Positions 13,180 to 13,210 of a stretch of DNA of 64,000 nt are shown here, piece by piece (the first letter of the stretch is position 1; each line of letters begins with the position of its first letter). The notes beneath the pieces were generated by a model that was given only the letters and a program-made list of their open reading frames with translations, made no database searches and was not told where the DNA came from. The position numbers were made by a program, and so were the translations under genes. The stretch covers positions 96,001 to 160,000 of the forward strand of contig CM000435.1 of NCBI GenBank assembly GCA_000165345.1, written 5' to 3'.

Positions 13180-13210
13180 CACGTGGATGGCGGCAGAATT
13201 CTGCCGCCAT
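13180..13210. promoter_or_regulatory. CACGTG box immediately followed by a perfect 24-bp palindrome, ATGGCGGCAGAATTCTGCCGCCAT, in the RIO2/CDS divergent spacer
   Basis: Read directly from the sequence. The palindrome is self-complementary over all 24 positions (13187-13210). CACGTG lies at 13180-13185. Confidence 0.6.

Follow-up and report, generated by a model that had tools for sequence, protein, structure and literature searches.

The perfect 24-bp palindrome between the divergent genes for the RIO2 kinase and CDP-diacylglycerol (CDP-DAG) synthase of Cryptosporidium parvum is probably, to judge from sequence comparison, the form taken in C. parvum by a cis-regulatory element found across the genus, namely a pair of inverted E2F-type GC boxes (GGCGG-N10-CCGCC) in the promoter shared by the two genes. 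With two neighbouring boxes, the pair would constitute a compact conserved module in the order TCGGTACC box, TGCAT(CAC) ApiAP2-type box and E2F pair. We infer that E2F/DP heterodimers, one per arm, would bind this element as double-stranded DNA and help to set up an open, bidirectionally active promoter, presumably with an AP2 factor on TGCAT and a further factor on GGTACC as neighbours.

The palindrome and its locus

The palindrome was picked out in an earlier note on the stretch of 64,000 nucleotides analysed here (the window). As that note claimed, ATGGCGGCAGAATTCTGCCGCCAT at 13187-13210 is exactly its own reverse complement, and the range originally given, 13180-13210, comprises CACGTG plus the palindrome. 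The two were described as fused; the hexamer at 13180-13185 does adjoin the palindrome, but a single G separates them, so that it is better called adjacent. The element lies within the divergent spacer between RIO2 on the minus strand and CDP-DAG synthase on the plus strand, in agreement with the bidirectional-promoter setting that had been proposed, and the CDP-DAG synthase protein of the window is identical to C. parvum EAK90504.1. The spacer spans 849 bp, and its G+C content of 20% bears out the description of a GC-rich element in a spacer of about 80% A+T. In the sequence CP141124.1 the element lies at about 150,084-150,107. The features of the locus are as follows.

11395-12852, minus strand: RIO2 kinase gene (Pfam Rio2_N and RIO1), with its ATG 334 bp from the palindrome
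13163-13170, no strand: TCGGTACC box, identical in six of the seven species compared for the boxes next to the palindrome and reading TCGTTACC in C. hominis
13174-13182, no strand: ATGCATCAC block, identical in the seven species, with TGCAT, an ApiAP2 'AP2_1'-type box, at 13175-13179
13180-13185, no strand: CACGTG hexamer, with CAC inside the conserved block and a GTG half that is not conserved
13187-13210, no strand: perfect 24-bp palindrome ATGGCGGCAGAATTCTGCCGCCAT, the C. parvum state of a conserved inverted repeat
13189-13193, plus strand: left core GGCGG, invariant in eight species (with the next bases, GGCGGCAGA)
13204-13208, plus strand: right core CCGCC, invariant in eight species (with the preceding bases, TCTGCCGC)
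13210-13215, plus strand: T6 run after the right arm, terminator-like in appearance and shared with C. hominis only
13702-15054, plus strand: CDP-DAG synthase gene (phosphatidate cytidylyltransferase, CTP_transf_1), with its ATG 491 bp past the end of the palindrome

Conservation across Cryptosporidium

RIO2 orthologues were located, their loci were retrieved, and the elements were read in the orientation of the window. The gene order SNF2 - CDK7-like kinase - RIO2 - CDP-DAG synthase is retained in every species compared. The elements of the eight species that were aligned are listed below.

C. parvum: ATGGCGGCAGAATTCTGCCGCCAT, perfect palindrome
C. hominis: ATGGCGGCAATCTTTTGCCGCCAT, with the flanks AAATGGCGGCAA-TCTT-TTGCCGCCATTT
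C. meleagridis: GCGGCGGGAAAGTTTTGCCGCCAC
Chipmunk genotype I: TGGGCGGGCCAACATTCCCGCCAC
C. ubiquitum: TGGGCGGGTCGATTTTCCCGCCAT
C. canis: CGCGCGGGCTATTTTGCCCGCCCG
Logan species (SRR31860986): TGGGCGGGCAAATCTCGCCGCCTG
C. felis: CGGGCGGCAAGTAGTAGCCGCCTT

In this ungapped alignment GGCGG-N10-CCGCC is invariant in all eight species, and the 10 bp between the cores vary freely in sequence, but not in length. C. hominis retains the arms only, as ATGGCGGCA-ATCTTT-TGCCGCCAT, with ATCTTT at the centre and neither GAATTC nor CACGTG. C. ryanae (GTACCGAATATGGCGCCAATTT) and C. xiaoi (GGTAGCAAATTTGGCGCCAACC) have a single compact palindromic site, TGGCGCCA / TTGGCGCCAA, at the same distance from RIO2 as the split site, and C. 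serpentis has TTTAAGCG-N9-CGCTTAAA, preceded by CCGGTACC. The sites of these last three species are regarded as putative homologues by their position and a nearby GTACC, and not by alignment. The compact site of C. ryanae and C. xiaoi is treated as the counterpart of the split site, which is supported by the same clade pattern in the neighbouring SNF2/CDK7 spacer, with TT(A/G/C)CCGCCAAA in the C. parvum clade versus TTTGGCGCCA in C. ryanae and C. xiaoi. The distance from the inverted GC repeat to the RIO2 ATG is 323-370 bp in ten species.

By this comparison of orthologous elements, only C. parvum has the perfect palindrome with its GAATTC centre, and the arms, their spacing and their position are old. 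The conservation in sister species envisaged by the earlier note is thus found for the GGCGG and CCGCC arms and their spacing, but not for the perfect 24-bp symmetry, which is absent from C. hominis and C. meleagridis.

As a separate observation, C. ryanae and C. xiaoi carry a compact GGCGCC palindrome in both promoters examined, and the C. parvum clade carries words of the GGCGG / CCGCC type, which hints at a clade-level shift in the preferred type of E2F site.

Probable E2F-type identity of the arms

E2F/DP is thought to dominate early transcription in Cryptosporidium, and to our knowledge no individual Cryptosporidium E2F/DP site has been dissected so far. The canonical E2F/DP sequence is TTTGGCGGGAAA; TTTSSCGC was used here as the general E2F consensus, the class being characterized by a GC core with T/A-rich flanks. 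Oberstaller et al. (2013; PMC3734150) found that, among the upstream motifs of C. parvum, two E2F-like ones are the most over-represented, namely motif 3 (DTTGSCGCCH) and motif 4 (TTTGGCGGGAAV), with the cores [C/G]GCGC[G/C] and GGCGGG.

The arms of the C. parvum element, GGCGGC-AGA / TCT-GCCGCC, are imperfect E2F matches, the left arm word GGCGGCAGA agreeing with the motif-4 core GGCGGG at 5/6 positions and the right arm word TCTGCCGC with TTTSSCGC at 7/8. The right arm of C. hominis, TTTGCCGC, matches TTTSSCGC at 8/8 positions. C. meleagridis GGCGGGAAAG...TTTTGCCGCC reads as the published E2F-like motif, its left arm GGCGGGAAA being a full match, and full matches to E2F-like motifs are also given by the right arm of C. 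ubiquitum, TTTTCCCGCC, and by the compact sites of C. ryanae, ATGGCGCCAAT, and C. xiaoi, TTTGGCGCCAAC, i.e. T(T)GGCGCCAA.

Words of this kind are a common property of the spacers of the window. GGCGCC, GGCGGG and TTTSSCGC occur in intergenic DNA at 5-10 times their density in coding DNA, though intergenic DNA is more A+T-rich, and almost every upstream spacer contains at least one such GC word. The element lies in upstream intergenic DNA, where these words are enriched, as expected from the location of E2F sites, and the palindrome arms are the sole GC words of the RIO2/synthase spacer. The likeness that had been drawn between the arms and the E2F-like GC words of other spacers is thereby upheld, by the matches of the orthologues to published motifs as well as by the occurrence of such words in nearly every upstream spacer. 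The word GGCGGC itself is rare, with one further copy in the window, at 34812, beside a canonical GGCGCC. Six spacers, the present one included, have two GC words 6-23 bp apart; the other pairs are the following.

26254: paired GC words, TTGGCGCCGGCGCCAA
34806: paired GC words, ATGGCGCCGGCGGCATA
58978: paired GC words, ATGGCGCCAATTTGTGGCGCC
44972 and 21563: paired GC words, in further spacers

A paired or dimeric transcription-factor site, as had been suggested for the palindrome, is the best-supported reading by these motif matches, the fixed geometry and the window context. A dimeric factor other than E2F/DP might instead read GGCGG-N10-CCGCC at its fixed spacing, in the manner of some dimeric factors on inverted CGG triplets, the resemblance to E2F sites being partial. 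The spacing of the cores is indeed invariant in eight species despite common indels elsewhere in the spacer, the arms of C. parvum and C. hominis read GGCGGCA and not the canonical GGCGGG or GGCGCC, and the left arms of chipmunk genotype I, C. ubiquitum and C. canis have poor T/A flanks of the E2F type. However, no second GGCGG-N10-CCGCC occurs in the 64-kb window, and this single occurrence gives no evidence of a motif class of that form; C. meleagridis and C. ubiquitum match the E2F consensus together with its flanks, in C. ryanae and C. xiaoi the site is one compact E2F palindrome, and there is no known candidate factor. A dimer of another kind is accordingly considered unlikely, and the arms are taken in what follows as putative E2F-type boxes.

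Self-complementarity of the element

The palindrome had also been suggested to form a hairpin or cruciform. The predicted RNA hairpin is strong in C. parvum and C. hominis (about -21 kcal/mol, z of -6 to -7), C. canis (-19.6 / -28.9) and C. felis (-17.5), but the potential is weak in C. meleagridis, chipmunk genotype I and C. ubiquitum and nil (z of about 0) in the Logan species, C. ryanae and C. xiaoi, so that the suggestion holds for the predicted structure in some species, while a hairpin is not needed to explain the element. Over the ten outer pairs of the eight-species alignment, 80% of cells are paired versus 71% in shuffles, and five pairs have changed on both sides; the covariation score was reached by 0/500 shuffles and lies above that of every slid register, although related sequences can beat shuffles without any structure. 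As read from the alignment, pairing outside the cores is at chance level in chipmunk genotype I, C. ubiquitum, the Logan species and C. felis, and a mixed state, GGCGGG / GCCGCC, is found in C. meleagridis and the Logan species. Part of the extra pairing is explained by the inward-facing A- and T-flanks of two E2F sites, which are complementary by construction. Matched changes in both arms are not predicted by two independent protein sites, and homogenization by template switching would have to be assumed for them, selection on pairing being the other possibility. Template switching yields the same covariation without selection (PMC8794818).

It could thus be argued that self-complementarity itself has been selected, either as a transcript hairpin (the stem of a 5'-UTR or non-coding RNA) or as a cruciform in a supercoiled promoter, in which the GC words would merely stabilize the stem. 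The strong hairpins of the four species, the covariation beyond shuffles and slid registers, a double change from A:T to G:C at columns 10 and 15 in C. parvum and the extension of the outer stem to 12-bp arms in C. hominis speak for such selection, as does a conserved plus-strand GTAAGT...TTTTAG 77 bp downstream, which hints at a nearby transcript start. They are set against the species with weak or nil hairpin potential, the four species with chance-level pairing outside the cores, and the explanation of the covariation by template switching or by relatedness alone. Moreover, the features of a structured RNA or terminator are absent, there being no match in Rfam and a T6 run that is confined to C. 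parvum and C. hominis. Selection of the pairing as such is therefore improbable, and the same low probability is given to its combination with two protein sites, in which the element would serve as a cruciform- or hairpin-type promoter signal or 5'-end signal. If selection of this kind were nevertheless at work, the stem might have been lengthened independently in the two species, at the centre in C. parvum and at the outer ends in C. hominis, a possibility as doubtful as the selection that it presupposes; and a cruciform or hairpin next to the YCGGTACC box described below would then represent a new composite promoter architecture in Cryptosporidium. The pair of E2F-type boxes bound as double-stranded DNA remains the preferred reading.

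Origin of the perfect symmetry

Changes between C. parvum and C. hominis were polarized with C. meleagridis as the outgroup. Their common ancestor would have had approximately ATGGCGGCAAA?TTTTGCCGCCAT, a nearly perfect palindrome already, composed of two sites with fused A/T flanks. On the way to C. parvum, A would have been replaced by G at column 10 and its partner T by C at column 15, turning an A:T pair into a G:C pair. The changes in C. hominis are two central and two flank bases, of which the flank changes lengthen the outer stem. A 30-bp stretch at the element accounts for 7 of the 36 mismatches between the C. parvum and C. hominis spacers (P = 3e-4). Clustered changes are a known product of template switching, which also homogenizes the arms of inverted repeats and can generate perfect stems in one event (PMC5453318; PMC8794818; PMC8604942). 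The arms might thus have been matched by template-switch homogenization of an existing inverted repeat, or else by ordinary compensatory drift. An inversion of the central bases between species, which is a signature of template switching, was looked for by eye and gave no convincing match. The perfect symmetry is probably a recent elaboration in C. parvum of mutational origin, and the perfect palindrome itself requires no function.

Chance, artefact and discarded identities

The 24-mer is the only long perfect palindrome of the window that contains G+C, all others of at least 18 bp being pure A/T, and no near-copy of it (up to 3 mismatches) was found elsewhere in the window or in 100 shuffles. 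Base composition predicts 0.025 perfect 24-bp palindromes per window; when at least seven G:C pairs are required, the expectation falls to 1.3e-5 per window, or about 0.002 per 9.1-Mb genome, a composition-based figure that overstates the surprise because these spacers are enriched in GC boxes, which frequently come in pairs. With that reservation, the earlier judgement that chance is an unlikely source of the palindrome stands.

Five C. parvum assemblies contain exactly this 24-mer (that of the window, GCA_035232765.1, GCA_048859185.1, GCA_031892065.1 and GCA_015245375.1); two of them depart from the window in other parts of the spacer, through a single mismatch and through the length of the microsatellite. 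The C. hominis variant was found in two assemblies as well as in a short-read Logan contig of independent origin. That the palindrome arose by chance, or that it was created around an EcoRI site during cloning or assembly, is hardly credible in view of that expectation, of these independent assemblies, and of arms and a position that are kept across the genus with synteny intact on both sides, even though the centre reads GAATTC and the perfect form is confined to C. parvum. The earlier note had regarded absence from sister species as a sign of such an origin; the perfect palindrome and GAATTC are indeed limited to C. parvum, but the arms are conserved, and the independent assemblies and the orthologous variants refute the EcoRI-centred artefact.

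Other identities were considered and discarded. A known RNA gene or tRNA at the element was rejected, as Rfam gave no match at the gathering threshold in the whole window and, at permissive E-values in 12800-13750, a bacterial ylbH leader as the best sub-threshold match (E of 0.4), and ARAGORN detected no tRNA. A small ORF starting from ATGGCG was rejected, since the overlapping ORFs are only 25-42 aa long with TTG starts; the ATG of ATGGCG is missing in C. meleagridis, chipmunk genotype I and C. canis. A terminator scan flags the element, but a bacterial-type intrinsic terminator was rejected because the host is eukaryotic and the T-run is not conserved. A metagenome scan with TCGNTACCNNNATGCATCAC for further Cryptosporidium species returned 120 loci, all of them random matches in unrelated contigs, none with the GC repeat.

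Neighbouring TGCAT and GGTACC boxes

The most conserved 20-mer of the spacer, TCGGTACCATAATGCATCAC at 13163-13182, lies next to the palindrome and consists of TCGGTACC-N3-ATGCATCAC; its identity to five divergent species is 0.91, versus 0.54 for the spacer on average. Four AP2 domains of C. parvum bind TGCAT (PMC4117751), and a conserved upstream TGCAT core, as expected of an ApiAP2 AP2_1 box, is present at 13175-13179, with 22 bp between TGCAT and the centre of the GC pair. The comparison with published E2F/DP and ApiAP2 motifs that had been proposed thus yields E2F-like arms in the orthologues and a TGCAT box of the ApiAP2 type next to the palindrome. In the window, TGCAT occurs within 50 bp of 14 of the 21 intergenic GC-word clusters, versus 4.9 +/- 1.9 at random intergenic positions. 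AP2 motifs were not found in sporozoite open chromatin (2025 ATAC-seq preprint). Among the TGCAT / TGCATGCA boxes seen near GC words are those at 20271-20284, 39214-39229 and 58950-58997, and TGCAT directly abuts a GC word in GCATGCATTTCCCGC at 39214.

The TCGGTACC box recurs in intergenic DNA at 37392 (TCGGTACC) and 44506 (CCGGTACC), and neither TCGGTACC nor YCGGTACC is among the 25 published C. parvum upstream motifs. All three copies of YCGGTACC in the window (13163-13170, 37392-37399 and 44506-44513) are intergenic, against about 0.07 copies expected, by a rough composition estimate, in the 19.5 kb that is intergenic. The copy at 37392 is 19 bp upstream of an E2F-type site, TTTAGGCGCCAAT; in C. 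serpentis CCGGTACC stands 17 bp before the inverted repeat, and in C. ryanae GTACC stands four bases before ATGGCGCCAAT. YCGGTACC may represent a promoter box not described before, acting as a partner of E2F sites.

The CACGTG hexamer

C. parvum, C. meleagridis and the Logan species share CACGTG; in its place stand CACGGA (C. hominis), CACGTA (chipmunk genotype I) and CACAGA (C. ubiquitum and C. canis). The window contains two copies, versus 1.0 (first-order Markov) to 3.6 (mononucleotide) expected, i.e. there is no enrichment. CACGTG does not appear in the text of two Cryptosporidium motif papers (PMC3734150; PMC4117751), and bHLH is not among the published transcription-factor families of C. 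parvum. The proposal that the hexamer is a functional bHLH/AP2-type site is not supported, in view of this lack of conservation, of enrichment and of a listed bHLH family; the conserved sequence overlapping the hexamer is ATGCATCAC, a TGCAT box of the ApiAP2 type.

The second CACGTG, which had been placed near 10018 in the SNF2/CDK7 spacer, was located there at 10019-10024 and is conserved in C. hominis only. Both copies are followed, on one strand, by NN-TGGCGG, as CACGTG-TT-TGGCGG (10006-10024) and CACGTG-GA-TGGCGG (13180-13193). The GC words beside both copies are conserved, and neither CACGTG is kept beyond the closest relatives; CACGTG-NN-TGGCGG may be a coincidence or a young composite.

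Other features of the spacer

GTAAGTAATT...TTTTTTGTTTTAG on the plus strand, from 13287 (or 13291) to 13323, resembles a very short intron of 33-37 nt. Five species (C. parvum, C. hominis, C. meleagridis, chipmunk genotype I and C. ubiquitum) keep the intron-like ends, 5' GTAAxT and 3' TAG, which points to splicing within the 5' UTR of the synthase or to a plus-strand transcript, absent from the annotation, that begins close to the palindrome. It is followed by an (AT)n-rich microsatellite (13333-13440), which differs in length from one C. parvum assembly to another and is far shorter in C. hominis; short-read Logan contigs stop around this microsatellite, 326 bp upstream of the synthase ATG. 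On the RIO2 side, five species share an identical AATTTTAGATT (12971-12981), located about 120 bp upstream of the ATG of RIO2. The region before the synthase ATG (13543-13660) is long and moderately conserved, and contains the inverted repeat AGTACTT-N-AAGTACT.

Significance and comparison with known systems

The locus offers a natural variant series, from the perfect palindrome of C. parvum through the stem-loop of C. hominis and the mismatched pair of C. meleagridis to the compact single site of C. ryanae and C. xiaoi. Because this series stands beside TGCAT and GGTACC boxes, it is a convenient test bed for E2F/DP binding, for spacing and for bidirectional promoters, and it provides a clean example of how inverted repeats become perfect. 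The element is most probably of an ordinary type for the parasite, in an unusually symmetrical form, and leaves the current picture of gene regulation unchanged.

The symmetry of the palindrome resembles that of inverted repeats homogenized by template switching in that the differences between sister species are clustered, both arms have changed, and the stem is perfect in one lineage. Unlike a clean template switch, the flank change of C. hominis is not a clean reverse-complement copy. Paired inverted E2F sites exist in animal and viral promoters, e.g. the adenovirus E2 early promoter. The Cryptosporidium element is similar to such pairs in having two inverted E2F-type sites within about 1.5 helical turns in a promoter, although organism and spacing are different. 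The neighbouring box shares TGCAT with the ApiAP2 'AP2_1' box, TGCAT / TGCATGCA (PMC4117751), and is invariant in seven species and close to GC boxes, whereas its form here, ATGCATCAC, is half-palindromic. The closest counterparts of the arms are the E2F-like motifs 3 and 4 of Cryptosporidium (PMC3734150), with which they share an A/T-flanked GC core, an exclusively upstream intergenic location and a palindromic character. They differ from these motifs in that the C. parvum arms read GGCGGC, that two inverted cores are placed 10 bp apart, and that the whole 24 bp is symmetrical.
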